A stretch of DNA of 64,000 bases, taken from Gammaproteobacteria bacterium (GTDB lineage: Bacteria; Pseudomonadota; Gammaproteobacteria; Steroidobacterales; GCA-2729495). Position numbers and translations under genes: made by a program. This document shows, piece by piece, positions 9,901-62,991 of this stretch; positions within the stretch are counted from its first letter, which is position 1, and each line of letters starts with the position of its first letter. The notes below the pieces were generated by a model that was not told the DNA's origin, made no database searches, and saw only the letters and a program-made list of their open reading frames with translations. The stretch covers positions 11,395 to 75,394 of the forward strand of contig JANQPY010000036.1 in assembly GCA_028285245.1 (NCBI GenBank), read 5' to 3'.

Positions 9901-10740
9901 TTACGTCGGCTTTCTGAACCTCAGCGTGAACCGATCACTCTCGCCAATCGCCAGATACTTCTCGCGATCAACGTCTTTCTTCCGCAAAGTTGGCGGCAGC
10001 GTCCAGACGCCCGTGTCGTAGTCCTTCGTATCCTTCGAGTTCGCATTGATCTCCGAGCTTGCATCCAGCTCGAAACCGGCTGCTTCAGCCAGCTGAATAG
10101 CAAAGGCCTGATTGACATAGCCTGACGCGGCGCGCGGATCCTGATCGATCTCCTCGTTGCCGCGGTGCTCAACCACACCCAGCACGCCACCGGGCTTCAA
10201 CGCCCGGTACGCCGCGGTAAACATCTCTCCGGTGTAACCGCGGGGCATCCAGTTGTGGATGTTGCGAAACGTCAGCACCATGTCCAGCGTGCCTTCGGGG
10301 CCCAGATCCCATGAATCCGGCGGCATCAGGACGGTCATTTTCGTATTGCCATAGAGTTCCGGATACTCAGCTAATTTGGTCTTGAACCGCTCTACTCCGC
10401 GGGCCACAAACTCCGTCTCCGAGTCCGGATCCCAATGGGCTGCGTAGTATTGTCCCGCGTCGTTGACATAGGGCGCGATCACTTCGGTGTACCAGCCACC
10501 GCCCGGCCAGATTTCCGCGACGTGCGAGTCTGGCTTCAGACCAAAGAACTCCAGTGTCGCAACCGGATTACGGTACTGATTGCGCGCCACGTTATCGTCG
10601 CTGCGGTGCACACCCTCAGCAAGCTCGGTCAGACGCGAATCGCCCGCTGCGGTCGGCTGTGCCGCATCTTCACCGCCGCAAGCGGCTAGCGTGCAGCATG
10701 CCAGCAACAGGGCGGGCAGCTGTGTAATCCTGGAACTCAT
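9901..10740 (-). CDS. exported (lipoprotein) class I SAM-dependent methyltransferase, COG4798-like
   Basis: Lipobox LLACCTLAACGG. Methyltransferase motif I-like 'VAEIWPGGGWYTEVIAPYV' and 'LKPGGVLGVVEH'. A GGAG lies 8 nt upstream of the ATG. Confidence 0.75.
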   Translation of the reverse strand: MSSRITQLPALLLACCTLAACGGEDAAQPTAAGDSRLTELAEGVHRSDDNVARNQYRNPVATLEFFGLKPDSHVAEIWPGGGWYTEVIAPYVNDAGQYYAAHWDPDSETEFVARGVERFKTKLAEYPELYGNTKMTVLMPPDSWDLGPEGTLDMVLTFRNIHNWMPRGYTGEMFTAAYRALKPGGVLGVVEHRGNEEIDQDPRAASGYVNQAFAIQLAEAAGFELDASSEINANSKDTKDYDTGVWTLPPTLRKKDVDREKYLAIGESDRFTLRFRKPT

Positions 10741-10778: not shown

Positions 10779-11534
10779 CTACGCGAAGTTCATGGCATTT
10801 ATGTGGCTCACTTTGTCGGGCTGAGGCAAACGAAAAAAGCGGCGCAGTTCGCGCAGCATGCTGCGGTCGGGCACACCCTCGGCATAGCGAGCCTCAAGGC
10901 TGCGGCAGTAGCTGGCACCAAGATCCCAGGCGGTCTTGTAACGCTCTCTTTCGGCAGAGCTCAGATCAGTACTAAAGACGGGATCGGCAAACAGCAGTTG
11001 CCAGAGGTTTACGCCGGCGCGAGATTCCGGCGACTGATGGATCAGCGTGCGTGCGCTGACATACTTATCCACCTCGGCCTGCATTTCGAGCTCAAGCTGG
11101 GTAACCCGACGCTCCCGCGCTGCGCTGAACACGACATAGTTGAAATGACTAATGCCTTCAACAACCTTACAGAAGTCGGCCAGGCAATCCGGGCTCAGGC
11201 TGTTAAGGGGATCAGCGACGTCGAGGCGGGACAGCACTTCGGGCTCCAGGTACAGGGCGATGGCGAGACCGTCATCGTCCTCCACGAGCAGAAGCTTTTC
11301 ATCGGCCGCCCGCGCGTCAGGCCCCTCCCAGGTCTTAACCAGATCAGCATCGGTTACGAGGTAGTCGCGCACATCCGCCGCCGGCTCGATACCGCAGAGC
11401 CGGCCGTGCAACTGTTGTAGCTCGCGCAGCACTGCTTCTAGTGCGAACCCACCGAGCCGCGCGCATCGCCCAGCGGGTAGATATCCATAGCCCGGAGCAA
11501 GCGTGCAGCCCGCGGGCTGCCTGTCTTCATCCAT
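10779..11534 (-). CDS. hypothetical protein (unknown family), second gene of a coupled pair
   Basis: The ORF has high third-position GC in this frame and acidic, helical composition. The start is ambiguous. ATG 11534 overlaps the upstream gene by 97 nt. GTG 11432 lies 5 nt after the upstream TAG and would give about 218 aa. I recognise no motif. Confidence 0.6.
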   Translation of the reverse strand: MDEDRQPAGCTLAPGYGYLPAGRCARLGGFALEAVLRELQQLHGRLCGIEPAADVRDYLVTDADLVKTWEGPDARAADEKLLLVEDDDGLAIALYLEPEVLSRLDVADPLNSLSPDCLADFCKVVEGISHFNYVVFSAARERRVTQLELEMQAEVDKYVSARTLIHQSPESRAGVNLWQLLFADPVFSTDLSSAERERYKTAWDLGASYCRSLEARYAEGVPDRSMLRELRRFFRLPQPDKVSHINAMNFA

Positions 11535-12076
11535 AGCTCGTAGGCACGCAGTGCATCAGTGTCACAAGTCCCGCGCGCCGACGACCGCATCTCCTGCAGC
11601 ACATCAACCACCAACACGAACTTGGCGGATAGTTCAGCGAATACCCCACCCAGGGCGCGGCCGCGAACGGTGCCACGCATGCTGCCCGCCAGCGAGTTGT
11701 AGGCGCCTCCGCCCATGTGCATGTAGTAGTCCACGTCCACCGCTGCGCGCTGCAGGCTGTCAGCGAAGAAGCCCGCAATAAACAGCGCAACATCACCGAT
11801 CCGCTGCAGCGCGAAGTGGCGTTCCTCGGCGGTAGGTGCCTCCGCGGCATCCGTCAGCATCAGTGCGAGGGGCTTCAGATGTAGGCCATCCGGCCCGGAC
11901 TCGTAGAACGCCTCCGAGCGGGCGAACAACGTCAGCAGGTTAACGACATAGTGGTGCGTTTGGTCGTCGAGCGACACACGGTTGCTGGCTGCAGCCGCAT
12001 CCAGGGAGTCCCGAAAAAACTCCTGTAGGTTGCTGACGTGCTGAAGCCCATCAGACTCCGATGTCCTGCTGTTCAT
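11438..12076 (-). CDS. hypothetical protein (unknown family), first gene of a coupled pair
   Basis: ATG 12076 (MNSRTSESDG...) has a GGAGG 4 nt upstream. The longer ATG 12100 start abuts a GC hairpin and has no SD. The protein is helical with no TM or signal sequence, and I recognise no motif. Confidence 0.6.
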   Translation of the reverse strand: MNSRTSESDGLQHVSNLQEFFRDSLDAAAASNRVSLDDQTHHYVVNLLTLFARSEAFYESGPDGLHLKPLALMLTDAAEAPTAEERHFALQRIGDVALFIAGFFADSLQRAAVDVDYYMHMGGGAYNSLAGSMRGTVRGRALGGVFAELSAKFVLVVDVLQEMRSSARGTCDTDALRAYELWMKTGSPRAARLLRAMDIYPLGDARGSVGSH

Positions 12077-12297
12077 GCCACCTCCCGAGTTGCCGTGCAT
12101 GCGGTACCCGGGGCCGGTCCAGGGCTATGGACAAGGCCCCGGTGACAAAGCTATGCGCTGGCGGCAACCCGACCAGGCTGCAGCAAGCACTAGTTAGTTA
12201 TATAGGTGCCAATGCGATACAAATGTGAGCATGGTCACGAAACCGGAGCTTCTGTAAAACCCGCCGCAAGACCTGCATCGGCGCAGCTCCAGTAACG

Positions 12298-13818
12298 CTA
12301 GACGGCCAAGGCAAGCTGCGGTTGCCAACCCAGCTCGCGCACGACCAGCTCGGCGTGATCCTGCCGCAGCCGGAAGCTCAGAAACTCGCCCGGACGTCTC
12401 AGCGCCACGCCGATGTCCAGCTGCAAGGTCGCGCCGGTAGCCACGGGGCCGCGCAAAAACCACGCGCTTTCGGCGCTCTGGCCACGCAGCGCCCCGTTGC
12501 GTCGCAGGCTTTCCAGGAATTCCACCAGTTGCTCACGTAAGCGCGCCAGCACATCTTCACTGCCCAGCCCGAACGTTGCCCAGCGGCTGCCACGGGTAAC
12601 ACCGGCCAGGATGAACGCGACAGTCCTGCGCAGATGCAACTCAGACCACTCCGGGGAAAGCCCTGCACGCTTTCCCAGGGTGACGAAACCAGTGACGCTG
12701 GCGCGGCCGCGCCGATCCCGAAACACGGGGTTCACCCCAAAACGGCGTAGCACGTCGCAATCCTCGGGCGCGAGTACAGGCTCGATCCGCTGGCTGGTCC
12801 GAAGCTCGAGAGACTCGGCGAACGGCTCCCAGACGGCGTGGTCCAGGTCGTGAGCAACCAGGCATCCCGCAATAGCGCCCAGCACACTCCCCTCCCTTGG
12901 CCTCGGGAAGTAAGTCAGGGCATTGGGACTATCCAGTCCATATGCCTGGTGGTCGCTGACGACGTCATGCACCGTCTGCCAGTGGGCCGGCGGGTCAACC
13001 AGTAACAGCGCGTGCCGCCGCCGGCAGTATTGTTCTGCGGCGAATAAGGCCACGGGGCCAATCCCCGCGTCTGCAGCCGGCGATACCAGACACAGCAAAT
13101 CAAGCCTTGCGACTTGCTCCAGCGCATGCAGTCCGGTGCCCTCGGCAGCCGATCCAATCAGATCGTAGTCCGATGGATGGGGAGTGCCGGTGCCTTCAGA
13201 CTCGGAATAGACGTAGCCGACTGCGGAGCCGACGCCGGCACGGACAGTGCGACTGGGACGCACGCTATCTGAATCCGCAGCGACCTTGACCAGGCTCGAC
13301 TGGAGCAATGCGTGCCCGACGTACTCGGGGTGTTCGGGATCGGCGAACACACCTCTATAGATTTCCTGTTCGACGACGAGTGGCCGCCGCGCCGAATCCA
13401 GACGCTGCACGATCAAATTGAATGCGTCAGTCTGGTCGGTGCCAAGGCCATCGTAGTCAACCGATGCGCGCAGGTACTCGAATTGCCCCGGGCACAACGC
13501 CTCAAGCGCGAGTGCACCGCCTCGACCCGGCAGCTCAAGCCGGTTGGCAGTCGAATCGCGGCAGATGCGCACCACAATCGCGACCGAGCCACCGCAGGCG
13601 AAGAACTGCTCGAGGTAGCCGGCCAGGCGGCTCGACTTGTCTGGCGTGCCAAAACGGCGCAGGTATTCAGCGACGCTACGCACTGCAACCGGAAGATTGG
13701 CGGGGCCCCGAGGCGCGGGCCCTATGAACGCTGCGATAGTTTCGCGATGAAGTGCGATGGGTGCGCCGGGCGGCGGCCCCTCCATGACAAAAATGCCGCT
13801 GTTACCCGGGTCGTCCAC
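12298..13818 (-). CDS. contractile-tail sheath family protein, divergent and orphan
   Basis: 506 aa with a GTG start. Sheath hallmark blocks occur in the canonical order: SGIFVMEG...AAFIGPAPRGP...VRSVAEYLRRFG; FFACGGSVAIVVRI; LLCLVSP; HALLLVDPP; ALTYFPR; GVNPVFRDRRGRASVTGFVTLG; LHLRRTVAFI...RWATFG...LREQLVEFLESLRRNGALRG...AWFLR. Confidence 0.7.
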   Translation of the reverse strand: MDDPGNSGIFVMEGPPPGAPIALHRETIAAFIGPAPRGPANLPVAVRSVAEYLRRFGTPDKSSRLAGYLEQFFACGGSVAIVVRICRDSTANRLELPGRGGALALEALCPGQFEYLRASVDYDGLGTDQTDAFNLIVQRLDSARRPLVVEQEIYRGVFADPEHPEYVGHALLQSSLVKVAADSDSVRPSRTVRAGVGSAVGYVYSESEGTGTPHPSDYDLIGSAAEGTGLHALEQVARLDLLCLVSPAADAGIGPVALFAAEQYCRRRHALLLVDPPAHWQTVHDVVSDHQAYGLDSPNALTYFPRPREGSVLGAIAGCLVAHDLDHAVWEPFAESLELRTSQRIEPVLAPEDCDVLRRFGVNPVFRDRRGRASVTGFVTLGKRAGLSPEWSELHLRRTVAFILAGVTRGSRWATFGLGSEDVLARLREQLVEFLESLRRNGALRGQSAESAWFLRGPVATGATLQLDIGVALRRPGEFLSFRLRQDHAELVVRELGWQPQLALAV

Positions 13819-13896: not shown

Positions 13897-14565
13897 TTAT
13901 TGGAAGAGACCCACGCCCCGAAAACTATAGCGTGCGCCAATGAACCACTGCGTGTTCTCATCATTGGTCTCAACGCCAACCTGGGCCTTCAGATTTGGCA
14001 CAAACTCGTAGAGCAGGCGGGCGCCAAGCTGCAGCTCACCGTCCGCGCCATCGAATTCCTCGTAGCCAAATTCGCCAATAAACTCGAAGGCCGTGGAGTT
14101 GATGATGCGAATACCTGAAGTGATCGCGAAGCCGTCGACGTCACTGCCTGTGTCCGGATCGGCGTTCAAAAACTCAAGCTGCAGAAACCCGCTGAAGCGA
14201 TCGCTGTAAAGGCGGTTCGGCTCGCCCGGCGTCAGCGGCGTGTGCACGCCAATACCGATGCCAAACTCATCGACGTCCGGAAAATTTACGACGCCGAATC
14301 CGGTATTAACCGAATCGAACTGATTGGTTTCGAGCCTGGCCAGGGCATGGAAATACTTGCCCAGCTCAATAGAGCCCTCGAGCTTCACTCCGTCGGCATC
14401 GACGTCGCCGCCTGGAATTTCAAACTCGGTTTCCTGATACGCGATCTCAGCGTACGTATAGGAAATCGGCGACGGTCTGGCCTGCACAGCCGACAAAGGC
14501 TGTAAGGCGAAAATAATGATAACTGCACTCAGCGCCGCGACGCGGCTGATATTCATGCTGGGCAT
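13897..14565 (-). CDS. small outer-membrane beta-barrel protein
   Basis: ATG 14565 with GGGAGG 9 nt upstream. Signal peptide MPSMNISRVAALSAVIIIFALQPLSAVQA. Alternating hydrophobic beta-strand pattern with an aromatic-rich C-terminal strand (FIGARYSF). Confidence 0.7.
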   Translation of the reverse strand: MPSMNISRVAALSAVIIIFALQPLSAVQARPSPISYTYAEIAYQETEFEIPGGDVDADGVKLEGSIELGKYFHALARLETNQFDSVNTGFGVVNFPDVDEFGIGIGVHTPLTPGEPNRLYSDRFSGFLQLEFLNADPDTGSDVDGFAITSGIRIINSTAFEFIGEFGYEEFDGADGELQLGARLLYEFVPNLKAQVGVETNDENTQWFIGARYSFRGVGLFQ

Positions 14566-14783
14566 GTCTGCGGTCCTCCCTAATGACACCCGCGGCGGCC
14601 TGCGCCCACCCGTGCAAACGCGCTGCACGCACTGCGGCCGGCAAACCCCGTGAGCCCAATAACCCTCGCTCCCAACGTTGCGCACCGGAAGCGCTGATAA
14701 ATCTGGCACATAGGCCCGATCAAATCAACTAACTACAAAGGTATTTGGCGCAAATGCCTGCGGCTGATAGGTATTTTGAGTGG

Positions 14784-15932
14784 CTAGAGCTCGGCTGGCC
14801 CATCGTCGGCGTCGGCGGCATCGACAAGGACCTCATGGACGATGACGTTATCCACGCGCCTCGCCTGGCCGATCGCCGCCCGGGCGGGCGCGCCTCCAGC
14901 CAGCACGGACAGCGGGACGCCGAGCTGCGCTTCGGCAATATTTGTCAGCTGGCCGGCCCGCAGCCGGGCGCGGGGATTGGGGCTATCGACAAGCCTGGCC
15001 CGCGCGCGCGTGTCCAGGCCGCCCAACCAGTCGCGCTCATCTTCTTCCAGGGGTGGATGTGCTTCGAGCACCAGATCATCGCCTTGCCAGCCCAGCAGGT
15101 AAGGCTGATTGACGATGCGAACTGGCGTACCGACAGGCACGTCTTCAAACAGCATTTCGATGTCTTCGGGGTACAGGCGCACACAACCGTGACTGACGCG
15201 CATGCCAACGCCACCTGGCTTGTTGGTGCCGTGTATCAGGTAGCCCGGTATACCCAGTCCGAGCACCCTATTACCCAGGGGATTGTCCGGTCCTGGCGGA
15301 ACCTGTGGCGGCAGCGGATCACCAGCCTCCGCATGCTCCTTGCGGATTGATGCGGGCACAAACCAAACCGGATCTCGCGCCTTGGAGACGACCTCGGTTT
15401 CGCCCGTCGGCGTTTCCCAGCCAGTCCGGCCAATGCCGATCGGGTAGGTCTCGACGTATGCCGTTTCGTCGCCCGCTGCCGGCGGATAGTAGAACAGCCG
15501 CTTGGCAGCAATGTTGAGCACGATGCCTTCGCGCGGCGCCGACGGCAGCACAAAGCGAGTTGGCAACACCACTGCCGTGCCCGCTCCGGGGAGCCAGGGA
15601 TCCACGGACGGATTCGCCGATTTCAGCTCATCGAAGCCAACGTCATAAGTCCGGGCGATTTCGACGAACGTATCGTCTGCCGTCGCGTAAACCACCTGCA
15701 GCTCGCCGACGACGTCGTCGCCCGGCGCAATCGCAAAGCGATTCGCTACCAAGGGCTCAGTACCACTGCGCTTGGCGGCGGTATTCCTTGGAAGTGACGA
15801 CTGAAAGCCTTCGGGAGGTTCAAATATTGCGTCGACAACACCGCAGCCGTTAGCCAGGCAGGCCAGGGCCACTGTTGCGGCAAGCTTCGCGGAATGCCGC
15901 AACATCCGGCGGTGCGCGACTAGCGGCTGCAC
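14784..15932 (-). CDS. L,D-transpeptidase (YkuD domain) with LysM-like N-terminal domain, lipoprotein
   Basis: Catalytic motif 'SHGCVRLYPEDIE' and lipobox LANGCG. The start is GTG 15932 or ATG 15905. Confidence 0.85.
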   Translation of the reverse strand: MQPLVAHRRMLRHSAKLAATVALACLANGCGVVDAIFEPPEGFQSSLPRNTAAKRSGTEPLVANRFAIAPGDDVVGELQVVYATADDTFVEIARTYDVGFDELKSANPSVDPWLPGAGTAVVLPTRFVLPSAPREGIVLNIAAKRLFYYPPAAGDETAYVETYPIGIGRTGWETPTGETEVVSKARDPVWFVPASIRKEHAEAGDPLPPQVPPGPDNPLGNRVLGLGIPGYLIHGTNKPGGVGMRVSHGCVRLYPEDIEMLFEDVPVGTPVRIVNQPYLLGWQGDDLVLEAHPPLEEDERDWLGGLDTRARARLVDSPNPRARLRAGQLTNIAEAQLGVPLSVLAGGAPARAAIGQARRVDNVIVHEVLVDAADADDGPAEL

Positions 15933-19018: not shown

Positions 19019-19216
19019 CTAATGAAGTCGTGACCAGTTCAGCAACTCAACAGCGTCAACTTCCATCTCAAAATTCTTGGCTAACAGTTCTTCGATCTCA
19101 GTGGGATCAAGAATCTGTTCTGCCGGCGAATTAACTTCTACAACCCCGCTATACTCGTCAGCGAAATCTTGCTCTTCCGAGCGCAACAGAAATCGGGTGT
19201 AGTATTTCGCGCGCAT
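19019..19216 (-). CDS. small acidic hypothetical protein (65 aa)
   Basis: ATG 19216 (MRAKYYTRFLLRSEEQDF...). The longer form would overlap the divergent ompA-family gene. A strong terminator directly downstream supports transcription, but there is no clear SD. Confidence 0.45.
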   Translation of the reverse strand: MRAKYYTRFLLRSEEQDFADEYSGVVEVNSPAEQILDPTEIEELLAKNFEMEVDAVELLNWSRLH

Positions 19217-19288
19217 GGCCAAAAGGTACGGGCATAACGCTGCCGATACTGTGAGACACCGCACAGATTCAAGACCGGATACGACTGA

Positions 19289-20746
19289 ATGAATTGGGGA
19301 ATTTGCATCACGGTGAGCCATGCACGGTGGGTCCTCTGCGCGGCATTACTGCTCGCTGCGTCGGCCGCCACAGGTCAGGATTTTGCCCGGCAGCTCGCCG
19401 ACGCACAGGCCCTGTTGAGCAAAGCGAACGCAGACAATGCCGACCTGCTTGCACCGGAGACTTTTAGCCGAGGCACAGACGCACTGCGCAAGGCCGAGGC
19501 AAGGTTTGCAGCTGGGCGGGCTGACGCGCGGCTGACCCGCGAGCTCGCAGAAGCATCGGCGGCACTGTCATCAGCCATCGACCTGGCCGGGCGGGCACAG
19601 CGCGAGCTGGCCGCGGCTATTGGTGCGCGCGCTGATGCAATTGCGGCAGGTGCCCCGGCTCAAGACTCTGATGCCTTTGCCGATGCCGAAGAGCGTCTTG
19701 TTAATGCGGCAGCCGCGCTGGAGGCCGGCAACCTCGATAAGGCAAACGCGCGTGCTGACGATGCCGAGCGACGGTTGCGCGAAGTGGAGCTGCAGGCCAT
19801 CCGCAATATGTTGTTTGGTTCGGCACGCCAGGCGATTGAGGACGCGGACGAGCAGCGCACTGACCGCTTTGCACCCAGAACGCTAGCCAGAGCGCGGCAG
19901 CTACTGGCCGAGGCGGAGCGTCTGCTGCAAGCAGATCGCTATGCCGTCGAAGAGCCCACGCGCCTGGCAAACCTGGCGACATACGAGGCCCGGCATGCCA
20001 GGTTCATCCGCGGCCTGGCTGAAGATGTAAGAAAAGGCCAAAAGTCATTCGAAGACATCGTACTGGCGTGGGAAGAACACTGGACCCTGCTCGCCGAAGC
20101 GGCCAACGTCCCGGCGGATTTCTCAACCGGGTATGCGGAGCTGGCCGCCGCCATTGACCAGGAACTACGGCGCGTGCCGGGCCTGGAGTTCAACGTCGCA
20201 GAACTAACCAAGCGAGTGAATGGTCTGGAAGAAGAAATTCGCGAGCTGGATGACCGCCTCGGCAGCACGTCGGCTGAAAGGTCTGCGCTCATGCGCGAAC
20301 TGCAGGCAAGGGCACGAACCCGGGAACAGTTCGCGACGGTGAATGCGCTGTTCACATCCAAAGAGGCGGACGTACTCAGAGACGGAGACAACGTTATATT
20401 GCGCCTGGTCGGATTACGATTTGCCAGCGGATCGGATCAGCTCAATGCCGGCAGCGACGCACTACTGCAAAAACTGCGCGATGCCTTCAACGTCTTTCCG
20501 CGGCTTGAGGTGGTCGTTGAGGGACATACTGACTCTTCCGGCAGCGCCAGCAGAAACCAGGCGCTATCCCAACGGCGCGCGCAGGCTGTCGCGGACTATT
20601 GTGTCGAGCAACTAGGCCTGCCGGCATTTCGCGTAAAGGCCGTGGGCTACGGCGACACCCGGCCCATCGCCCCAAATCGCACGGCGGAGGGCCGCGCCAA
20701 GAATCGCCGCATTGACTTGCTGCTTAAACCGCGCCTGGTCAACTAA
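19289..20746 (+). CDS. OmpA-family peptidoglycan-binding protein with long N-terminal coiled-coil region
   Basis: C-terminal OmpA-like domain: GHTDSSGSASRNQALSQRRAQAVADY...GYGDTRPIAPNRTAEGRAKNRRIDL. Signal peptide ...VLCAALLLAASAATGQ. The start may instead be GTG 19313. Confidence 0.85.
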   Translation: MNWGICITVSHARWVLCAALLLAASAATGQDFARQLADAQALLSKANADNADLLAPETFSRGTDALRKAEARFAAGRADARLTRELAEASAALSSAIDLAGRAQRELAAAIGARADAIAAGAPAQDSDAFADAEERLVNAAAALEAGNLDKANARADDAERRLREVELQAIRNMLFGSARQAIEDADEQRTDRFAPRTLARARQLLAEAERLLQADRYAVEEPTRLANLATYEARHARFIRGLAEDVRKGQKSFEDIVLAWEEHWTLLAEAANVPADFSTGYAELAAAIDQELRRVPGLEFNVAELTKRVNGLEEEIRELDDRLGSTSAERSALMRELQARARTREQFATVNALFTSKEADVLRDGDNVILRLVGLRFASGSDQLNAGSDALLQKLRDAFNVFPRLEVVVEGHTDSSGSASRNQALSQRRAQAVADYCVEQLGLPAFRVKAVGYGDTRPIAPNRTAEGRAKNRRIDLLLKPRLVN

Positions 20747-30425: not shown

Positions 30426-31196
30426 TTAACTTTCCTGCAGACGCCAACCGGTCACTGCGGCACTCTCAAGCAGGCCCTGCAGATTAATAGCCAAATCAAA
30501 ATGCGGATGTGACTCGCGGGCCAGAGCCGTCGCCGCGCCAAGCGTATCCGCAGCCTGCAAGGATCGCAAAAATACCAGCCCACCCGGGGGCAGCCGGTGA
30601 ACTTTTACTGCGTCCGCTGGACGCATCACCAGCGCGTCTTCGCCTTCGTCCTGAAGCTCGAGCAACTCGGTTCGCTCGCCGTCCGAATGCGCCTCCCACA
30701 GAGTGATGATGGGCCACTGTGAGTCCACCAGTTCCAAGGACGGATGCAAATCGAAGCTCAAACGCGGCACGTCGGCTTCTGCACAGTCCAACAGGCTATC
30801 CGGTTGCAGGCTTGCAGCATCTGCCGCGTGATAGGCGCGCCGGCGAGCCAGCTCCAGCCTGGCCACATCGGGCAGGTAAGGCAGGGAGTTCGCGGGCTCG
30901 AACGCGTGAATAAACTCTGGGAACTCCTGACCGTAATGCAGCAGCACAGGCGACTCGGGCAGGTGACTCTTAACAAAGACTCGGGCCATGGCAGCAAAGA
31001 ATTCCTCACCAACCAGCTGCTGTACCACGGGGAAACTCTGCGCCAGCGCCTCTATCAGGCTAACGTGGATGTTGTTGCGGTACACGTTGAAACGCTGCCC
31101 GGCCGTGACCGCGCCTGCATCAACTACCTCAGACGGCGGTGGCAACGATGCCTCGAACAGCGCCGTGCTGAATCGTTGCTGTAGCTCAGTGCGCAT
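30426..31196 (-). CDS. bufC: DUF2063 protein, MNIO partner (BufC-like)
   Basis: The DUF2063 N-terminal block 'QRFNVYRNNIHVSLIEAL'. ATG 31196 overlaps the bufB stop by 11 nt. Confidence 0.8.
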   Translation of the reverse strand: MRTELQQRFSTALFEASLPPPSEVVDAGAVTAGQRFNVYRNNIHVSLIEALAQSFPVVQQLVGEEFFAAMARVFVKSHLPESPVLLHYGQEFPEFIHAFEPANSLPYLPDVARLELARRRAYHAADAASLQPDSLLDCAEADVPRLSFDLHPSLELVDSQWPIITLWEAHSDGERTELLELQDEGEDALVMRPADAVKVHRLPPGGLVFLRSLQAADTLGAATALARESHPHFDLAINLQGLLESAAVTGWRLQES

Positions 31197-32088
31197 GGTT
31201 CGCCAGACAGGAGGACTCCTGCCTCCCAAGTGCAGCAGCCGCGGTCATCACCTCGCCCGCCAGTATGGACCAGGCAGGTAGCTCGTTGTCCCACTCCACC
31301 AGGACCGGGACTGCGCCGATCTGGTCTAAAGCAACGTCCAACAACTGCCATACGTCGTTTGCAACCAGACGATCATGACTGTCAATCAACAGATCAGCAC
31401 CGCCGGCATCAGCAGCGTGGCCGGCAACGTGTATCTCGCCCACCAGCTCGGCCGGAAATTGCTTGATGTAGTCCACCGCGTCAAAACCATGATTGTGTGC
31501 CGACACGAAGACGTTGTTGACGTCGAGCAACAGGCCACAGCCAGTCTTCGCAGAGACTTCGCGAAGAAAATCGATCTCTGAGAAACGGCTGGTGTCGAAG
31601 CGCAAATAAGTGGCCGGATTTTCCAGCAGCAGACTTCGCGCGAGATGCTCCTGCGCCAGCTCGACATGTTCGACGACACGTGCAAGTGCTGCATCATCGT
31701 AGGGCAACGGCAACAGGTCGTTCAGATACTTTCCGTCGTGCGCAGTCCAGGCCAGGTGCTCGGAAAACAATTCGGGCTGATAACGATCGATGAGCTTCCG
31801 CAGCCGCGTAAGATGATCACGGTCCAGGGGACCTTCACCACCAAGCGAGAGGCCTACCCCATGCAGCGACAGCGGGTAAGCCTCCCGCAGCGCTTCGAGA
31901 CAGGCGTGGGGCGGCCCACCGTCGCCCATGAAGTTTTCCGGATGCACTTCGAACCAGCACAGATCCGGATAGGCTTGTTCGTTTACTTCCGCGAGCGCGT
32001 CGCGGTAGTGAGGATTGCGCAGACCCGCACCGGCGCCCGCAAGCGCCGGTGCAGTCCTCGGGGCCGCTGGATTCGCGTGAGGCGTCAT
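31186..32088 (-). CDS. bufB: DUF692 multinuclear non-heme iron oxidative (MNIO) enzyme (BufB/MbnB family)
   Basis: DUF692 blocks are all present: GAGLRNPHY, WFEVHPENF, LHGVGLSLGG, FSEHLAW, LLENPATY, LLLDVNNVFVSAHNHG, EIHVAGH. Confidence 0.9.
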   Translation of the reverse strand: MTPHANPAAPRTAPALAGAGAGLRNPHYRDALAEVNEQAYPDLCWFEVHPENFMGDGGPPHACLEALREAYPLSLHGVGLSLGGEGPLDRDHLTRLRKLIDRYQPELFSEHLAWTAHDGKYLNDLLPLPYDDAALARVVEHVELAQEHLARSLLLENPATYLRFDTSRFSEIDFLREVSAKTGCGLLLDVNNVFVSAHNHGFDAVDYIKQFPAELVGEIHVAGHAADAGGADLLIDSHDRLVANDVWQLLDVALDQIGAVPVLVEWDNELPAWSILAGEVMTAAAALGRQESSCLANHAH

Positions 32089-32131
32089 GTCAACGCACGC
32101 TCACCAACAGCCGGGTCAACAGGCGCCCGGA

Positions 32132-32440
32132 TTAGGGCAGATCGCGATCCAGCGCGGTCAGGCTCCCCTTGCGGTCGCCGGGCAACTCGATCGATTCGCA
32201 GGTCCCTTTCGGAACGAGCTTCCAGGCATTGCCCTGATAGTCGACGACGGAGCTGCCAGAACAGGTTGTTCCGGGACCCGCGGCACAATCATTCTTGCCT
32301 GCCTCAGAGACGCCGAAGCACTTTTCCATCTCGCTTGAGTGGCCGCCCGCCACTGCATTGTTGGCGGTCAGCGAAACTGCTCCAACAGCCAGCGTCAGCG
32401 CGCCGGCGAGCCCGGCAGTCTGCTTGTAGATCGTCTTCAT
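32132..32440 (-). CDS. bufA: DUF2282 bufferin-type RiPP precursor (Sec signal plus 4-Cys core)
   Basis: Signal peptide [32 protein letters not shown]. Core '[26 protein letters not shown]...[12 protein letters not shown]' has the four conserved Cys of DUF2282 in the usual spacing. Confidence 0.85.
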
Positions 32441-48011: not shown

Positions 48012-51000
48012 ATGCGTCATCTATATCAGCGACTCCGAGTCGCCGTTCTGGCCTGCTCATTTGCTAGCACATTCCTGTTCAGCGCGGGGCTATCCGCCGC
48101 CGTAACCACGATTGATATCACCGGCAACTTGTCGGATGGCGATAACAACTGCACGCAAATTACGCTGGCGTTTACAACCCGTGATTGCAGCTACGGGAAC
48201 ACCCGGCGTGCTCAAACGGGAGCGTTTAGTAGTCCCTGGCAGGGCTTTAGCAGCGGCAGCGGGTTCTACACGCCCGGATCAACGGGCGATGACATCGCCT
48301 ATACGCCTGGGCCAGGTGATGCCGCGAACGGCCGAATCGCTCCAGGCATCACCGGCACGATCAGCATTGATGACAATGACACCCCAGGGAACGCCGACGA
48401 CGACATCGTAAACGGCAACTTCGTTATCGGGGCGGCCGTGCGCAACACGCCGACGGGGCAAACCGATCGAATCACCGAAGCCTGGTCAAGTTACGACCAC
48501 ACGATGGCGCCCACGCCCGTAAACGCGGCGGTCGATCTTGGTGCTGGCACGACGCGGTACATCATCGCCGCTGATGGCGTGATCCCGGCGGATATTTGCT
48601 CTGCCGGAGACCCCGGTGACTGCTTCCCTACCGATGCAGTACTAGAGGCTAACGGTCCGGTGGGGTTTTGGCCTTCGGATTCACCGTCATCAAATGTGCC
48701 TTCCAGTGCGAGCCCATCGGACGGTGTCGGCATTGCCCGATCAACATTCTTTGCTTCGGGTCAGACGAATCCGCAACCTGGACCGCCTTTCCCAGCCGGT
48801 CCCGCTTTTGGCGCGGCCTCGACGACTGCGGTGATGAATGACTATGTCTGCACCGATAACGGGCTTAGCAACGACTGCAACGACAACGTGCTGATCTGGA
48901 ACAACCCGGCTTTTGCTCCGATTGGCCAATCCGAAGACCCAGGCTGGGACAATCTGATTCTGGTCATCGATGTAGATGCCGCCGGCGATGTCGTTGCTGC
49001 CCAAGGCTGGTGGACTCAGGAGTACTTCATCAACTTCAGCGTCAATGATGGCTCTACCGCTAATTCCTGGTCCGCAGGCACATTGAGCTTTACGGGTGAA
49101 TGCGCCAGCAACTGCCCGGGTGGTGGCACAGCGAACGACGATGAAGCAACAACCTCGTTCAACACCACCGTCTCCATCGACATCCTCGATAACGACGATG
49201 ACTTTACGGACCCGGTCAGCGTTTTTGTGCTGGTGGGTCCATCCGCTGGCGGAACCACGCAGGTCTTGGGCTCGCCCGGTCCTGCCGCTGGCGTCAGCAT
49301 TCTATATACACCCGTAGCCGGTCAGACGCCGTACGTTGACACGTTTACCTACCAGGTATCCGACGGCTTCGGAACGGATACCGCCACCGTGACAGTAGAC
49401 ATCGTCGGCGACGCACCGGTCATCCGCACGATCAACATTGGCGGCAACCTCGCTGATTCGGACAATGGCTGCTGGCAACTGACGCTTGCATTCACCAGTC
49501 GAGACTGCAGCTACGGCAATACGCGCCGCGCGCAAACCGGCGCGTTCCGGCCGGAGTGGCAGGGCTTTGGTGGCGGCAGCGGCTTCTACACGCCGGGCTC
49601 GACGGGCGACGATGTTTTCTATCGGCCTCAGCCGGGGGATGTAGCTCAGGGCCGCATCGCCCCAGCGATTACCGGCCTCATCAATATCAATGACAACGGT
49701 ACGCCGGGTGACGCCCTTGACGACCTCATTGAGGGTGAAATCGTCATTGGTGCCGCGGTGCGCAATGCGGCAACCGGACAAACTGACAGGGTGACGGAAA
49801 GCTGGTCCAGCTACGTGCACACGCTGGCGCCGACCGCAGTCAACGACGCCGTGGATCTCGGCGGTGGCACCACGCGATACATCATCGCCGCCAATGGTGA
49901 ACTGCCGGCGGAAATCTGCTCGGCGAACGATCCCAGCGATTGCTTCCCCTCGGATGCAGCTCTGGAACCTGTCTTCTCCCTCGATGGATTTTGGCCCTCA
50001 AGCTCCCCGTCGTCGAACGTAGGACCGGCCGTGACCCCGTCAGATGGCGTCGGCATTGCGCGCTCGCGCTTCTTTGCTTCCGGTCAGGGCCTGATCCCAG
50101 GGCCACCGTTCCCATCAGGGCCCGCGTTCGGCGCCGCCCGCACAACGGCGGTGATGAACGACTACGTGTGCACCGATACGGGTGCCAGCGATGACTGCAA
50201 CGACAGCGTGCTGGTCTGGAACAATCCGGCGAGCGCCCCGGTCGGCCAGTCGGAAGATCCGGGCTGGGACAATCTGATCCTGTGGCTGGACGTTAGTGCC
50301 GATGGCGACATCGTTGACGCCGGCGGCTGGTGGACGCAGGAGTGGTTCATAAACTTCAGCGTTAATGATGGCCAGACCGACAATAGCTGGTCTGCAGGCA
50401 CCCTGGCTTTTACTGGCACCTGCAGCAACTGCCAGACCGTCAGTGCAGAAGATGACAACGCCACGACGGCAGAGAACGTGGCGGTAGACATCGACATCCT
50501 GGCGAATGATCTTGGCTTAATTGATCCGGTATCCGTTCAGATCACGGCTGCGCCGTCGATTGGAACGGCCCAGGTCAACAACTCGCCCGGTCCTGCTGAC
50601 GGCATCAGCATTACCTACACGCCGAGTCCGGATACCACCGGTATCGATACGCTGGAGTATCAGGCTACCGATGCCAATGGTGAATCGGATACTGCGACGG
50701 TAACGATCACGGTTGAGGCTGCCATCGACTCCGACAGTGACGGCATCGCTGATGACTTCGACAACTGCATCAACGTGCCCAATGGCCCATTGATTCCGGA
50801 CGCCGGCGGCAACATACAACTGGATGCGGATGGTGACCTGATCGGTAACGCCTGTGATGCCGATTTTGACAACGACGGTGAGGTGAGCATCATCGATGCT
50901 ATTGCGCTGTTCTTCACCCTGGGGTCCGACAACGCCTTTTCTGATCTGAACGGCAACGGCGTCGTCGATCTGCCGGACTACATCATCATGATCCTGCAGT

Positions 51001-51038
51001 TCGGTGGCCCACCAGGACCGTCGGGGCTCATAGACTAA
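48012..51038 (+). CDS. large secreted repeat protein: 2 x 440-aa module (novel Cys-containing domain plus cadherin/Ig-like domain), TSP3 repeats, dockerin-like C-terminus
   Basis: GGGGGGAT SD and a signal peptide ending ...SAGLSAA. An internal duplication is described in the repeat features below. 'DSDSDGIADDFDNC...DADGDLIGNACDADFDNDG' is a thrombospondin type-3 Ca-binding repeat. 'DLNGNGVVDLPDY' is dockerin/EF-hand-like. Confidence 0.85.
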   Translation: MRHLYQRLRVAVLACSFASTFLFSAGLSAAVTTIDITGNLSDGDNNCTQITLAFTTRDCSYGNTRRAQTGAFSSPWQGFSSGSGFYTPGSTGDDIAYTPGPGDAANGRIAPGITGTISIDDNDTPGNADDDIVNGNFVIGAAVRNTPTGQTDRITEAWSSYDHTMAPTPVNAAVDLGAGTTRYIIAADGVIPADICSAGDPGDCFPTDAVLEANGPVGFWPSDSPSSNVPSSASPSDGVGIARSTFFASGQTNPQPGPPFPAGPAFGAASTTAVMNDYVCTDNGLSNDCNDNVLIWNNPAFAPIGQSEDPGWDNLILVIDVDAAGDVVAAQGWWTQEYFINFSVNDGSTANSWSAGTLSFTGECASNCPGGGTANDDEATTSFNTTVSIDILDNDDDFTDPVSVFVLVGPSAGGTTQVLGSPGPAAGVSILYTPVAGQTPYVDTFTYQVSDGFGTDTATVTVDIVGDAPVIRTINIGGNLADSDNGCWQLTLAFTSRDCSYGNTRRAQTGAFRPEWQGFGGGSGFYTPGSTGDDVFYRPQPGDVAQGRIAPAITGLININDNGTPGDALDDLIEGEIVIGAAVRNAATGQTDRVTESWSSYVHTLAPTAVNDAVDLGGGTTRYIIAANGELPAEICSANDPSDCFPSDAALEPVFSLDGFWPSSSPSSNVGPAVTPSDGVGIARSRFFASGQGLIPGPPFPSGPAFGAARTTAVMNDYVCTDTGASDDCNDSVLVWNNPASAPVGQSEDPGWDNLILWLDVSADGDIVDAGGWWTQEWFINFSVNDGQTDNSWSAGTLAFTGTCSNCQTVSAEDDNATTAENVAVDIDILANDLGLIDPVSVQITAAPSIGTAQVNNSPGPADGISITYTPSPDTTGIDTLEYQATDANGESDTATVTITVEAAIDSDSDGIADDFDNCINVPNGPLIPDAGGNIQLDADGDLIGNACDADFDNDGEVSIIDAIALFFTLGSDNAFSDLNGNGVVDLPDYIIMILQFGGPPGPSGLID
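48102..49421 (+). repeat. intragenic repeat unit 1 (aa 31-470)
   Basis: It aligns almost without gaps to aa 471-903 at a 440-aa offset. Examples: IDITGNLSDGDNNC/INIGGNLADSDNGC, RDCSYGNTRRAQTGAF, GFYTPGSTGDD, TTAVMNDYVCTD, SEDPGWDNLIL, WWTQE.FINFSVNDG, NSWSAGTL.FTG. Confidence 0.9.
49422..50720 (+). repeat. intragenic repeat unit 2 (aa 471-903)
   Basis: Partner of unit 1. The DNA is clearly diverged, with many synonymous and non-synonymous differences, so this is an old duplication and not an assembly artefact. Confidence 0.9.
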
Positions 51039-54106: not shown

Positions 54107-55693
54107 CTATTCCGCCAGTTCTGCTCCGGACACACCGGCGCGAATGCTGCGCAGATCTCGCAGCGCACTTGCGATGGCGTTATCCACTGCAAACCGCCTG
54201 GAACTCTCTGCGTCCAGCCGGCTGTTCAAGGTTCGGGTGACGCGCCGGGTTTGCCCGGCCTGATCGATGTACTCGAACAGCACAGACTTTACTGTGACCG
54301 GGAGCGGCGTCGGATTTTGAATCTCCGCCAGCAGGCGCCCGCTGTTGTCCGTGCCGACGCGCGCCTTCAGATACTTGGATGGTTTGTCCTTAAGCTCCAG
54401 CCGCATGAGGGAGACGGCTGCTGCGCGCCCGTCCGGAGAATTGGAGCTCGCAGCCGCGGCAAAGAGCTGCATTGCCTCGCCGCGCTGACCTGCCGCAAGG
54501 CGCAGCTCGCCAAGCGCGTTCATGGCCGGTGCCGTCGGCAGGCGATCAATGCTTGCCTGTAAATCCTCGACGGCTTCGCCGGTACGGCCCAGCGCCTTGT
54601 GCGCAATGCCGCGGCGCATGTGTGCGTAGAAATAGCCGGGATTGCGATCGATAGCCCGGGAGTAGTTAATCGTTGCATCTGACCAGCGCTGCTGCGCTGA
54701 ACGGATATCGCCCCGCAGATTGTGGAACAGCGCCTCGTCAGGTTCCTGACGCAGGGCTTGCTGCGCTTCATTTAGGGCGATATCGAGCTTGCCTTCAGCC
54801 AATGCTCGGCGACCGCGGTCATGCGCGTCGTACGCTGATTGGCTGGCACGAATCCTCGCTGTCGCCTGTTGGTAACGGTCGCGAAAATACTCCCCGGTAC
54901 TCGGTAACTCAGCTGCCTTGGCCTGATTGTTCCGAACGCGTTCGGCCGAAGGCGGGTGGCTCGCAAACAAGCCATCGAGCCAGCCCGACTGCCGGTTACC
55001 GGACAGCCGCAGAAACGTTTCCTGCAGCTGCACCGCTGCCTCGGGGTTGTAGCCGGCGCGGCTCATGTACTCCATGCCGTAACTGTCGGACTCACGTTCC
55101 GCGTCCCGGCCATATTTCGTGTTGACAAGCTGCGCGCCTATGCCCGCGCCAGTCATCAGTAGTGATCCGTAATCACTGGCGTTTGCCGCCACAGAGGTTG
55201 CAACCATCGCACCCTGCAGCAGCATGCCGCGCTGCATGGACTGAGCCCCGTGCCGAGCGGCCGCGTGCACGATTTCGTGACCGAGTACCGCTGCAAGCTC
55301 GGCTTCGCTGCCCAGTTCCACCAGCAAACCACGATGAATCGCGATCTTGCCGCCGGGCAGGGCCCATGCATTGGGCGTGGAATCATTGATGACCGCGAAC
55401 TCGTAAGGCAGATCGCGATCGCTGACTGCCGCGAGACGGTTGCCGACCCCGGCCACGTATTCCGTAAGCTCTGCGTCAACTACATAGTCGCCGCCGCCCA
55501 TCTGGCGCATCGGTTCGTACTGCTGCTGGCCGATCTGTATTTCTTCAGCAGTGCTGACGAACGCCAACTCATTCTTACCGGTGACAGGGTTCACCGCACA
55601 GCCGCCCAGCACCCAGGCGGCCAGCATGAGTGTTGCCAGCTGCATGGCCCCGCGGCCCGGAATCACGGTCTGGTTTCGCGTATTCGCCTTCAT
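54107..55693 (-). CDS. M48 zinc metalloprotease with TPR domain (BepA-like), lipoprotein, extra C-terminal beta-rich domain
   Basis: HExxH 'GHEIVHAAARH' and lipobox VLGGCAV. TPR-like repeats follow (ALAEGKLDIALNEAQQALRQEP..., YSRAIDRNPGYFYAHMRRGIAHKALGR...). About 100 further aa are unassigned. Confidence 0.85.
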   Translation of the reverse strand: MKANTRNQTVIPGRGAMQLATLMLAAWVLGGCAVNPVTGKNELAFVSTAEEIQIGQQQYEPMRQMGGGDYVVDAELTEYVAGVGNRLAAVSDRDLPYEFAVINDSTPNAWALPGGKIAIHRGLLVELGSEAELAAVLGHEIVHAAARHGAQSMQRGMLLQGAMVATSVAANASDYGSLLMTGAGIGAQLVNTKYGRDAERESDSYGMEYMSRAGYNPEAAVQLQETFLRLSGNRQSGWLDGLFASHPPSAERVRNNQAKAAELPSTGEYFRDRYQQATARIRASQSAYDAHDRGRRALAEGKLDIALNEAQQALRQEPDEALFHNLRGDIRSAQQRWSDATINYSRAIDRNPGYFYAHMRRGIAHKALGRTGEAVEDLQASIDRLPTAPAMNALGELRLAAGQRGEAMQLFAAAASSNSPDGRAAAVSLMRLELKDKPSKYLKARVGTDNSGRLLAEIQNPTPLPVTVKSVLFEYIDQAGQTRRVTRTLNSRLDAESSRRFAVDNAIASALRDLRSIRAGVSGAELAE

Positions 55694-61884: not shown

Positions 61885-62991
61885 CTAGTCAAGCTCGCGC
61901 ACCTGCATGCCTGGGCGGAGATTGTGCACACCGGAGGTAGCGATCCTGGTGCCCGGAGCCAGGCCGCTGCGAATACTGATGTCTGCGCCGGTGAGCTCCC
62001 CGACCTCGACCGGAGTTTGCGCAACGGTCATGTCGTCCCCGCGGATCGTCCACACGTAAGCGTTGCCATCGGCATCGGCCGCCACAGCCTGAGCAGGTAT
62101 CGTTGAAGGCGCTCCGCTGCCCAACTCCTGAATGGCACGCATCAACACCTTGCCTGTCATGCCTGGCGTCACGTTGACATCGTCCGGCGCATCAAAACCC
62201 AGTGTGACGTTATACGTGCGGGTCACCGGATCGGCCGTTGTCTCATAGGACTTCACGTAAGCACCAAACGCATCGGCCATGGTTGCCGGAATCTCGACCT
62301 TGGGCTCGAGACGCTCGGTGAACTGATCCTTAGTCAGGTCGGTTCTCGCCAGGGCTACATCCTGCTCGGGTATGGCAATACTCATCTCGAGAGAGGAAAC
62401 ATCCTGCACAACCAGCACCGCTTGTTTTGCCTGAATATTGGCAAAATCCCGGACCAGTTTTTGTGCCACGACACCGGCAAAAGGCGCTCGCAACTCGGTG
62501 TCATCAAACTGCTTGCGCGCCGCCCGCAGCGAAGCAAGACTCACCTCAAGGTTGCGCCGGGCCAGATCAAGATCCTGGCGGGTCACTGCATCGTCGTTAT
62601 AGGCCTGCTCGTAACGCGCGAAGTCCGCCTGCGCAGCGTTCTTGTCGGCAATCGCTTTGTCGAGCTGGGCCTGAAAATTTCGCGGGTCCAGCCGGGCCAG
62701 CAAATCACCTTCCTGTATTTCATCGCCTTCCTGAACCAGAAACGCTTCAATCCGCCCGGACACCTCGAAGGCCATATCCGAACGCTGCGCTGCCTCTACA
62801 GTGCCCGGATATTCCCGGGTCTGGTCTTCGCTCATCGACCCGAAAGTAAATATTTTGACCGGCCGAGCGACGGGCTCGGCAGGTGGTGCTGGCTCCTCGC
62901 CGCAAGCCGCGACCAGTGCTCCGCACATCAGGATTAACAAGGGTTTCGAATTTCTGTTCACTGCTTCGTGGGCTCCGCAGTCGAATCCCAA
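61885..62991 (-). CDS. RND efflux periplasmic adaptor (membrane fusion protein), lipoprotein
   Basis: Lipobox GALVAACGEE. The lipoyl/hairpin/beta-barrel pattern is present, e.g. 'FEVSGRIEAFLVQEGDEIQEGDLLARLD'. Confidence 0.9.
   Translation of the reverse strand: MGFDCGAHEAVNRNSKPLLILMCGALVAACGEEPAPPAEPVARPVKIFTFGSMSEDQTREYPGTVEAAQRSDMAFEVSGRIEAFLVQEGDEIQEGDLLARLDPRNFQAQLDKAIADKNAAQADFARYEQAYNDDAVTRQDLDLARRNLEVSLASLRAARKQFDDTELRAPFAGVVAQKLVRDFANIQAKQAVLVVQDVSSLEMSIAIPEQDVALARTDLTKDQFTERLEPKVEIPATMADAFGAYVKSYETTADPVTRTYNVTLGFDAPDDVNVTPGMTGKVLMRAIQELGSGAPSTIPAQAVAADADGNAYVWTIRGDDMTVAQTPVEVGELTGADISIRSGLAPGTRIATSGVHNLRPGMQVRELD

Follow-up and report, generated by a model that had tools for sequence, protein, structure and literature searches.

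We analysed a stretch of 64 kb (the window) of a 101-kb contig from a Gammaproteobacteria bacterium (JANQPY010000036.1), and within it an open reading frame (ORF) on the minus strand, 12298..13818, which starts with GTG and encodes a protein of 506 aa. This protein, 100% identical to the database entry P0001, is a real and highly divergent homologue of contractile-sheath proteins. An earlier note, made from the letters of this DNA alone, had quoted a series of sheath motif blocks from the ORF, and all of them were found in its translation. The gene and the parts of its product are as follows.

12298..13818 (-): coding sequence of the 506-aa protein, a sheath fold standing alone; start codon GTG, stop codon at 12298-12300
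13780..13800 (-): N-terminal arm strand S7-G-I-F-V-M-E13, aligned with PGVYVEE of 8bky
13555..13737 (-): residues 28-88, the best-conserved block (AFIGPAPRGP ... FFxNGG ... VVRV), identity 0.56 as against 0.43 overall
13219..13554 (-): residues 89-200, outer domain present as an insertion, rich in beta strands according to the model and containing invariant columns
12889..13173 (-): residues 216-310, middle domain with DYDLIGS, HALLLVDPP and ALTYFP; D217, Y218, L220, G222 and others invariant
12367..12654 (-): residues 389-484, canonical tube-facing core, region of Phage_sheath_1C (Pfam 21.8 bits, sub-threshold); WGAR gone
12301..12360 (-): residues 487-506, C-terminal tail with the motif E-L-G-W-Q-P, specific to the main family

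The sheath similarity proposed from the motifs is significant at the profile level. PHROG family phrog_23, 'tail sheath', matches residues 7-446 (E=1.7e-17), and phmmer against all PDB chains returned 9ezm_A (3.2e-27), 8bky_A (5.8e-23, residues 7-486) and 8bl4 (2.7e-22), with weaker matches to Pvc2-4, to Afp2-3 and to sheaths from cyanobacteria and Algoriphagus. The Pfam matches of the protein stay below threshold: Phage_sheath_1C (PF17482) lies under its cut-off of 26.9, and Gp18_domIII_N scores 15.5, in residues 28-88. Among 37 family members, PF17482 was matched by 20 at E<=0.01; PF04984 (Phage_sheath_1) was matched neither by any of the 37 nor by the window protein, and scans of NCBIfam and PADLOC gave no match for the latter. 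When aligned by HMMER to solved sheaths of contractile injection systems (CIS), the blocks correspond one by one: SGIFVMEG to PGVYVEEV, AAFIGPAPRGP to AAFVGLAPTGP, FFACGGS..VVRI to FFNNGGS..VVRV, HALLLVDPP to RVAIIDPP, ALTYFP to AALYYPW, and LHLRRT..RWATF to LNIRRY..QWVVF.

The structural comparison gave the same answer. An AlphaFold2 model built with 37 relatives in the alignment reached a mean predicted local distance difference test score (pLDDT) of 87.5 and a predicted template-modelling score (pTM) of 0.87, and it keeps the complete three-part sheath architecture with high confidence. Foldseek returned 101 PDB matches at E<=1e-3, and the best 50 listed are all sheath subunits. The top match is 9ezm_A, the contracted CIS sheath of Halogeometricum borinquense (E=3.8e-27, template-modelling score (TM) 0.70), followed by the sheaths of the Streptomyces coelicolor CIS, of phages T4, P1, phi812 and A-1(L), of the Photorhabdus virulence cassette (PVC) and the antifeeding prophage (AFP), and of R-pyocin. 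Sequence and structure together thus establish the protein as a genuine, very divergent sheath homologue.

The H. borinquense sheath, which belongs to a CIS resembling a type VI secretion system (T6SS) (PDB 9ezm; Sci Adv 2024, PMC11566945), is the best match in both sequence and structure (TM 0.70 over 525 columns, 23% identity), and the two proteins share a multi-domain architecture that includes the inserted outer domain. However, 9ezm is part of a complete firing machine, whereas the window protein has no machine genes nearby, lacks PGVY and WGAR, and carries a C-terminal tail of its own family. The cytoplasmic CIS sheath of S. coelicolor (8bky, 8bl4, 9gtp, 9gts; PMC10020575) aligns over residues 7-486 (E=5.8e-23) with all motif blocks in order, and by Foldseek at E ~1e-16; unlike the window protein, it keeps the canonical core motifs, and its locus encodes an entire CIS, including tube, baseplate and ATPase; a related Streptomyces locus (L083) has a tube match.

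Several features set the protein apart from canonical sheaths. In place of the hallmarks PGVY(V/I)EE and V-W-G-A-R, it reads SGIFVME and VTGFVTLGK. The replacement of WGARTL by TGFVTL, pointed out in the earlier note, is essentially right: the family consensus is G-x-V-T-x-A-R, in which the W and G of V-W-G-A-R are gone. In the N-terminal arm, G8, I9, V11 and E13 are 78-92% conserved among 74 orthologues, and the reduced pattern G-I-x-V-x-E was seen in most distant orphans; residues 1-12 of the monomer model are predicted to be disordered (pLDDT<50). Residues 28-88 contain invariant F31, R37, G38, P39, F56, F73, A80 and R84, and a further invariant cluster lies in the inserted domain (L96, P110, G111, E114, R117, D121, F133, N134, R139, Q151 and E152). 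Overall, 46 columns are invariant across 37 family sequences at 40-59% identity. The middle domain carries the motif DY[DE]L[IV]G, which marks many members of the orphan clade described below. At the C-terminus, the main family shows 82-89% conservation of E495, W498 and Q499, but neither canonical sheaths nor distant orphans can be aligned beyond about residue 487. The protein is probably cytoplasmic, since its N-terminus, read by eye, shows no signal peptide.

Genomic context and origin of the family

A word-indexed protein search yielded 348 relatives, and the best 120 of these all have E<1e-100, are 39-59% identical to the window protein, measure 486-548 aa and are nearly all unannotated. 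Moreover, a scan of one genome per GTDB species gave 72 family loci, which with three found earlier make 75 (including two duplicates), each seen with up to 10 kb on either side of the sheath gene. All 75 come from uncultured Gammaproteobacteria, labelled Chromatiales or Chromatiaceae at NCBI, and four of the carriers are closed chromosomes of ~3.5 Mb (closed carrier chromosomes include OZ244928.1, OZ244979.1, CP070671.1 and OY970328.1). A search for cultured carriers returned only names of metagenome-assembled genomes (MAGs; Gammaproteobacteria, Chromatiales, Steroidobacteraceae, Pseudomonadota) and no isolate; Steroidobacteraceae has cultured genera.

The earlier note had stated that no other part of a contractile machine is present in the 64 kb, and the Pfam, PHROG, tube and CIS-locus scans all agree with it. 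A simple gene call gave ~60 ORFs, of which ~55 were compared with Pfam and 13 of these also with PHROGs; no baseplate, spike, tape-measure, DUF4255 or AAA+/ClpV gene was found among them, and their sole ATPases belong to ABC transporters. A tube hidden Markov model (HMM) derived from genuine CIS loci, run with filters off on six-frame ORFs, had no match in the window. When every ORF of eight genuine CIS loci was compared with the window by phmmer, the only significant match was the sheath ORF itself.

The next tier of the genome scan, at 28-30% identity and of a similar length class, consists of sheaths from Pyrinomonadaceae, Blastocatellia, an actinomycete MAG, Hydrocarboniphaga and Streptomyces (L075-L081 and L083), which lie outside the orphan clade. 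In these loci the gene directly after the sheath encodes a gp19-type tube (PF06841, E ~1e-45) and an AAA+ ATPase lies nearby, as in L080. The closest tube-linked or solved relatives of the orphan family are the CIS sheaths found in Halogeometricum, Streptomyces, Acidobacteriota, Actinomycetota and Hydrocarboniphaga. The tube HMM matched eight of the eight tube-linked loci and none of the 75 family loci, a result that validates the method on known positives and at the same time gives the decisive contrast. No tube gene was found in L084-L092 or L094 either, and the sheath gene is also solitary in five further main-family loci. Altogether, no tube, baseplate, spike or ATPase gene was found near the sheath gene in any of the 86 contexts examined.

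To place the family more widely, an exhaustive phmmer search against 1.84 billion representatives was used, revealing a continuum of relatives, 201 of them at E<=1e-30. Six distant relatives, at 31-40% identity, were inspected in context, and in five of them the sheath gene stands alone among housekeeping genes.

P0257 and P0269: EamA-sheath-(GGACT)-DUF4442-oxoprolinase-SSF
P0285: S49-HAD-..-GDT1-sheath
P0303: LemA-TPM-TPM-YkuD-sheath-abhydrolase-PlsB
P0306: SDR-ALDH-TPR-sheath-MGMT-like-DSBA
P0314: contig too short to judge the context; protein with canonical motifs

The ykuD, S49 and lipoprotein genes beside distant orphans are 48-54% identical to those of the window, the sheath itself being ~32% identical, and the distant contexts are therefore rearranged versions of one ancestral neighbourhood. 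For instance, the distant orphan in L092 has a 50%-identical ykuD orthologue directly upstream and a 48%-identical orthologue of the window's methyltransferase-like lipoprotein nearby. The P0303 subgroup is large (its best 120 matches all have E<1e-98) and includes MAGs named Steroidobacteraceae.

A tally of motifs in the 150 best representatives showed that ranks 1-71 almost all lack PGVY and WGAR, and that canonical sequences with both motifs begin at rank 72. When 120 full-length sequences were placed in a neighbour-joining tree with the tube-linked sheaths as root, 70 representatives formed one clade (bootstrap 40/40) that holds the window protein and all five context-verified distant orphans, every canonical sequence falling outside. 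Midpoint rooting was uninformative, as the root fell inside the long-branched orphan group. As judged from this tree, the orphan family has one origin, and the loss of the motifs coincides with the clade.

The conservation of neighbours was followed by mapping the window genes onto the family loci by tblastn. We found lipA, the S49 peptidase gene (sohB-like), the M48 peptidase gene and ykuD upstream of the sheath gene and co-oriented with it in nearly all loci. Divergence of the sheath from the window copy tracks the divergence of each neighbour (Spearman 0.41-0.59, p<0.005), as co-inheritance predicts. The family is thus vertically inherited as a single chromosomal gene beside ykuD, M48, S49 and lipA in uncultured Gammaproteobacteria, including Steroidobacteraceae MAGs. 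There is no sign of a prophage or of mobile cargo: the window ORF scans gave no phage families and no integrase, Rfam (tRNA included) had no match in the window, the G+C content near the sheath gene (0.63) is unremarkable against 0.56-0.63 across the window, and no relative of the protein was found in IMG/VR viral contigs.

Moreover, the family is intact and under strong purifying selection. A complete single-frame sheath ORF is present in 69 of the 69 loci not cut by a contig end, and the ratio of non-synonymous to synonymous substitutions (dN/dS, Nei-Gojobori) is 0.07-0.31, with a median of ~0.13, in 22 non-overlapping pairs at 70-97% identity. The relaxed selection or frameshifted orthologs that the earlier note had named as marks of a decaying remnant were thus not observed. 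Most members are annotated as 'hypothetical protein', and some distant ones are named 'phage tail sheath family protein' (PGAP/JGI), so the homology is visible to annotation pipelines; what is undescribed is the orphan, vertically inherited status.

Redistributed constraint and its interpretation

In canonical sheaths, the conserved core is formed by the N- and C-terminal parts next to the tube, which are held responsible for tube contact and assembly, whereas any further domains lie on the outside and vary (Evseev et al. 2022, PMC9230969). The tube-linked outgroup follows this pattern in the 7 pairs that fall in the identity band, drawn from 7 sequences: pairwise identity is 0.82 in the N-arm and 0.73-0.76 in the C-terminal domain, falls to 0.36-0.38 in the inserted domains and is 0.54 overall. 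The orphan family does the reverse: against an overall value of 0.43, the N-arm stands at 0.39 and the C-terminal domain at 0.36-0.37, and residues 28-88, 89-200 and 216-310 reach 0.46-0.56. Residues 28-88 stand highest, at 0.56. The inserted domain (residues 89-200), which is the least conserved part of the tube-linked relatives (0.36), reaches 0.46, and residues 216-310 reach 0.50 as against 0.38 in the outgroup, whereas residues 389-484 drop from 0.76 in the tube-linked relatives to 0.36. Taken together, N-arm and C-terminal core are 73-82% identical among tube-linked sheaths and 37-39% identical in the orphan family. The tube-facing core, where a machine component would carry its strongest constraint, is thus not the most constrained part of the orphan proteins, and in these alignments the constraint is inverted, having shifted from the tube-facing N- and C-terminal core to the outer domains.

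We propose, with a probability of roughly 0.6, that a sheath was exapted once, long ago, to become a cytoplasmic protein without a tube, possibly one that still self-assembles. The earlier note had suggested a sheath fold repurposed for something other than injection, and this suggestion is supported by the solitary state in 86 contexts, by purifying selection and by constraint that has moved off the tube core; the fold was probably taken over for a different cellular job. The protein descends from a CIS sheath, and it would no longer wrap a tube or fire. Most likely it would self-associate into a tube-less ring or homo-oligomer, or a polysheath-like polymer. Self-association is favoured because the whole sheath architecture and the N-arm strand G-I-x-V-x-E survive, and because isolated sheath proteins polymerise. 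The newly constrained surface of the outer domain (E114, R117, D121, N134, R139, Q151 and E152) would bind a cellular partner or ligand, with the polymer acting as a static scaffold rather than as an injector.

Polymerisation is suggested here by analogy with tube-less self-assemblers of the same fold superfamily, namely T4 gp18 polysheath, FV3 gp053, RaK2 gp041 and TssB/TssC (HsiB1C1). T4 gp18 forms polysheaths without a tube (PMC9230969). FV3 gp053 (PMC6357053) and HsiB1C1 (PMC3597794) are reported to self-assemble as isolated sheath proteins, and a sheath protein alone can give stable tubules (PMC9230969, PMC6357053, PMC8618960, PMC3597794). However, such tubules are by-products or in-vitro products of tail proteins, whereas in the orphan family the solitary state is natural and selected, and assembly is what we infer.

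Several points weigh against the exaptation proposal. With N-arm and C-terminal core relaxed, it is also harder to argue that subunits still engage in a handshake, and the outgroup behind the constraint comparison is small. The neighbouring genes give no coherent functional signal, and the two downstream genes of unknown function are dispensable in one subclade. Transcription signals around the sheath gene reveal no operon structure: promoter and terminator scans gave results at chance level, and a hairpin that follows the stop codon scores no higher than shuffled versions of the sequence do (z=-0.74). Moreover, the contexts seen comprise the 64-kb window and flanks of at most 10 kb, so that a sheath-less machine could lie elsewhere in the genome, improbable as we consider this.

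A stronger version of the proposal holds that the sheath itself became a cellular polymer, that is, a chromosomally fixed tube-less filament or tubule in Steroidobacterales-like Gammaproteobacteria. This would be a new cytoskeletal or scaffold class derived from a phage tail part, possibly tied to the upkeep of the envelope by way of the old linkage with ykuD. We consider this version tentative, its odds being well short of even.

The main mechanistic rival is an exapted protein that does not polymerise, but works as a soluble monomer or small oligomer in which the sheath fold serves only to carry a surface on the outer domains that binds or catalyses. The same constraint data speak for such an adaptor: conservation is lowest in the N-arm and C-terminal core, which in real sheaths mesh between subunits; subgroups of the clade have different C-terminal tails; and it is in the inserted domain that charged and polar residues without variation are clustered. 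Nevertheless, we consider it unlikely, as the three-part architecture is kept with high model confidence and a TM of 0.70 to a contracted sheath subunit, G-I-x-V-x-E is kept in the N-arm across most of the clade despite disorder in the monomer model, and no enzyme or ligand-binding family was matched in Pfam, NCBIfam or Foldseek.

T6SS loci can have satellite islands, and by this precedent the protein could still serve as sheath in a functional contractile injection system, with the genes for tube, baseplate and spike at another place in the genome. The retained fold and N-arm would fit such a split locus, and the genome regions seen are loci only. We nevertheless rate it as distinctly improbable because the housekeeping position is fixed across ~32-59% sheath identity, PGVY and WGAR are lost throughout the clade, and the tube-facing core is relaxed where a working sheath should be most constrained (cf. 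PMC9230969); moreover, a tube adjoins the sheath in all eight of the nearest tube-linked relatives and in none of the 75 family loci.

Host-kept homologues of phage structural proteins also bring to mind conflict, for which the domestication of phage parts is common (PMC8987985), and the protein might be an anti-phage factor, either a sheath mimic that poisons the tail assembly of myophages or a sensor of them. Here the evidence points strongly the other way. PADLOC gave no match for the sheath or its two unknown neighbours, and only a weak mad2 match on the methyltransferase-like gene; synteny is stable and inheritance vertical, outside any variable or defence island; a dN/dS of ~0.13 bears no sign of an arms race; and it is precisely the interfaces required for co-assembly with a phage sheath that have degenerated. 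We therefore give this explanation very little weight. The solitary state of the gene, its high divergence and its scores under the Pfam gathering thresholds might suggest a decaying remnant, left over from a prophage tail or a CIS locus. This reading is refuted by the intact orthologues (69 of 69 non-truncated) and the dN/dS of the 22 independent pairs, in line with the 46 invariant columns, the confident structure model and a window in which neither phage genes nor an integrase or a tRNA flank the gene.

While the sheath fold itself is known, a domesticated sheath family that is ancient, monophyletic and stands alone has so far been undescribed. To our knowledge, all known contractile-tail domestications (T6SS, tailocins, extracellular and cytoplasmic CIS) keep the machine whole. 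A full-text literature search found no description of a solitary sheath family or of solitary sheath genes, and in a review of the recruitment of mobile genetic elements (PMC8987985) the contractile-tail domestications mentioned are whole-machine cases only. Here, a single structural part has apparently been kept alone over long evolutionary time, under purifying selection and with its constraints redistributed. If the exaptation proposal is true, the family would offer a clean natural experiment on the re-use of a mechanical protein, a candidate for a new self-assembling cellular polymer and a possible source of tube-free protein nanotubes, and it would mark a large lineage of Gammaproteobacteria that live, uncultured, in sediment, soil and freshwater.

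Neighbouring genes and other observations

The genes that flank the sheath gene in the window are listed below.

14784..15932 (-): ykuD L,D-transpeptidase, conserved upstream neighbour (context); Pfam YkuD 5e-21, same strand in 60 of 63 loci
13897..14709 (-): outer-membrane beta-barrel gene between ykuD and the sheath gene; weak OmpO/Ax21 match (3e-9, far below its cut-off) and Porin_4
11438..12100 (-): all-alpha protein of unknown function, ORF of 220 aa (database entry from M9, 212 aa); in 52 of 64 loci
10779..11432 (-): second protein of unknown function, ~217 aa (a longer ORF of 251 aa overlaps the previous gene); in 47 of 62 loci
9901..10740 (-): lipoprotein with weak class-I methyltransferase likeness (Pfam Methyltransf_25/12/11, E 0.04-0.18, sub-cut-off); in 41 of 60 loci

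The spacing of 78 nt between the beta-barrel gene and the sheath gene, given in the earlier note, is correct. As a neighbour of the family, however, the beta-barrel gene did not hold up: it was found in none of the 69 related loci with enough upstream DNA, and because of this absence we regard it as an insertion private to the window genome, an incidental, lineage-specific addition to an otherwise fixed array. The synteny that the note had proposed (beta-barrel, sheath, two unknowns, methyltransferase) is accordingly conserved in its downstream part in ~80% of loci, and ykuD takes the place of the beta-barrel gene as the conserved upstream partner. The ykuD-sheath linkage is ancient, but may be plain synteny. 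In one subclade (L054, L057, L058, L060, L064-L068, L073 and L082), both unknowns are absent and the sheath gene is followed directly by the lipoprotein gene. Variable inserts occur on both sides of the sheath gene across loci (rhomboid, glycine-zipper lipoprotein, GGACT).

The two unknown genes (10779-12100, minus strand, ~212 and 217 aa) form a tightly coupled pair, and their families have thousands of metagenomic members. The 220-aa (212-aa) protein, with 4558 database relatives, is 54-72% identical among orthologues and thus better conserved than the sheath; it has no match in Pfam, NCBIfam, PADLOC, PHROG or PDB, and its low-confidence helical model has no fold match. The starts of the orthologues of the second protein map to residue 34-35 of the 251-aa ORF, which places its gene translationally close to the 220-aa gene; this protein has no PDB match either and is unrelated to the first. 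We considered the pair as disguised tail parts, but ruled them out as a tube, given the lack of any Pfam, PHROG, NCBIfam, PADLOC or PDB-profile match and of any relation to each other. In the spacer of 197 nt between the pair and the sheath gene (12101-12297) lies a stretch at 12195-12215 (cctatataactaactag on the minus strand) that is unusually A+T-rich for a genome of ~60% G+C. Transcription of the 212/217-aa pair might begin from a promoter here, although the consensus promoter scan did not flag the stretch.

In the nearest relatives of the window, a GGACT/AIG2-like gene (gamma-glutamylcyclotransferase-type, ~180-195 aa) directly follows the sheath gene. Of the 75 family loci, 10 have this arrangement, as do another three from the main family, although two of these three are repeats of L004 (loci with the gene include L004, L007-L009, L011-L013, L017, L023 and L086-L088), and it was seen again in a distant orphan context (L090:6947-7486), alongside an oxoprolinase (hydantoinase A/B) gene. 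In the window the gene is absent, and the 197-nt spacer stands in its place. The adjacency could be a recurrent functional link or an ancestral one. Similarly, a small MGMT-type DNA_binding_1 gene lies within 0-9 kb of orphan sheath genes in several differing contexts, directly downstream in L094 (L094:5157-5495, L089:13882-14235, L090:16548-16892, L001:640-1134, L003:559-1083), a recurrence that probably reflects what remains of an ancestral gene order. Between lipA and the OmpA-like gene, a small ORF (19019-19321, minus strand) is kept in 55 of the 75 related loci, where it is called at 65 aa and has no family (counterparts include L001:5482-5679, L002:4425-4622 and L003:5486-5683).

The remaining window ORFs are of housekeeping or envelope type and encode, besides YkuD, M48, S49 and LipA, an M16 peptidase, an MFS transporter, an ABC-2/GldG-like transporter with DUF4340, OmpA-like, GGDEF, NhaA and AlkB-like proteins, a TonB receptor, an LpxA-like protein, an RND pump and others; two RND efflux partner genes at the 3' end of the window (61885-63947) were identified by reading alone. 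An ORF of 528 aa at 54107-55693 (minus strand) matched 59 family loci and was at one point a candidate for a second sheath. It proved to be an M48 peptidase with C-terminal TPR repeats, a paralogue of the M48 gene of the array, and this accounts for the false synteny signal. On the minus strand at 30426-32440, a cluster combines a DUF2282 protein (102 aa), an MbnB/TglH/ChrH-type enzyme that modifies ribosomally synthesised and post-translationally modified peptides (RiPPs; Pfam E=5e-100) and DUF2063, which we take to be the gene set of bufferin-type copper-binding RiPPs; it has no relation to the sheath finding. Finally, a secreted-looking protein of 1008 aa (48012-51038, plus strand) contains an internal tandem duplication of ~480 aa, in which the block ...NLSDGDNNC.QITLAFT.RDCSYGNTRRAQTGAF... 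occurs twice, followed by a C-terminal Big_9 domain and thrombospondin type-3 repeats.

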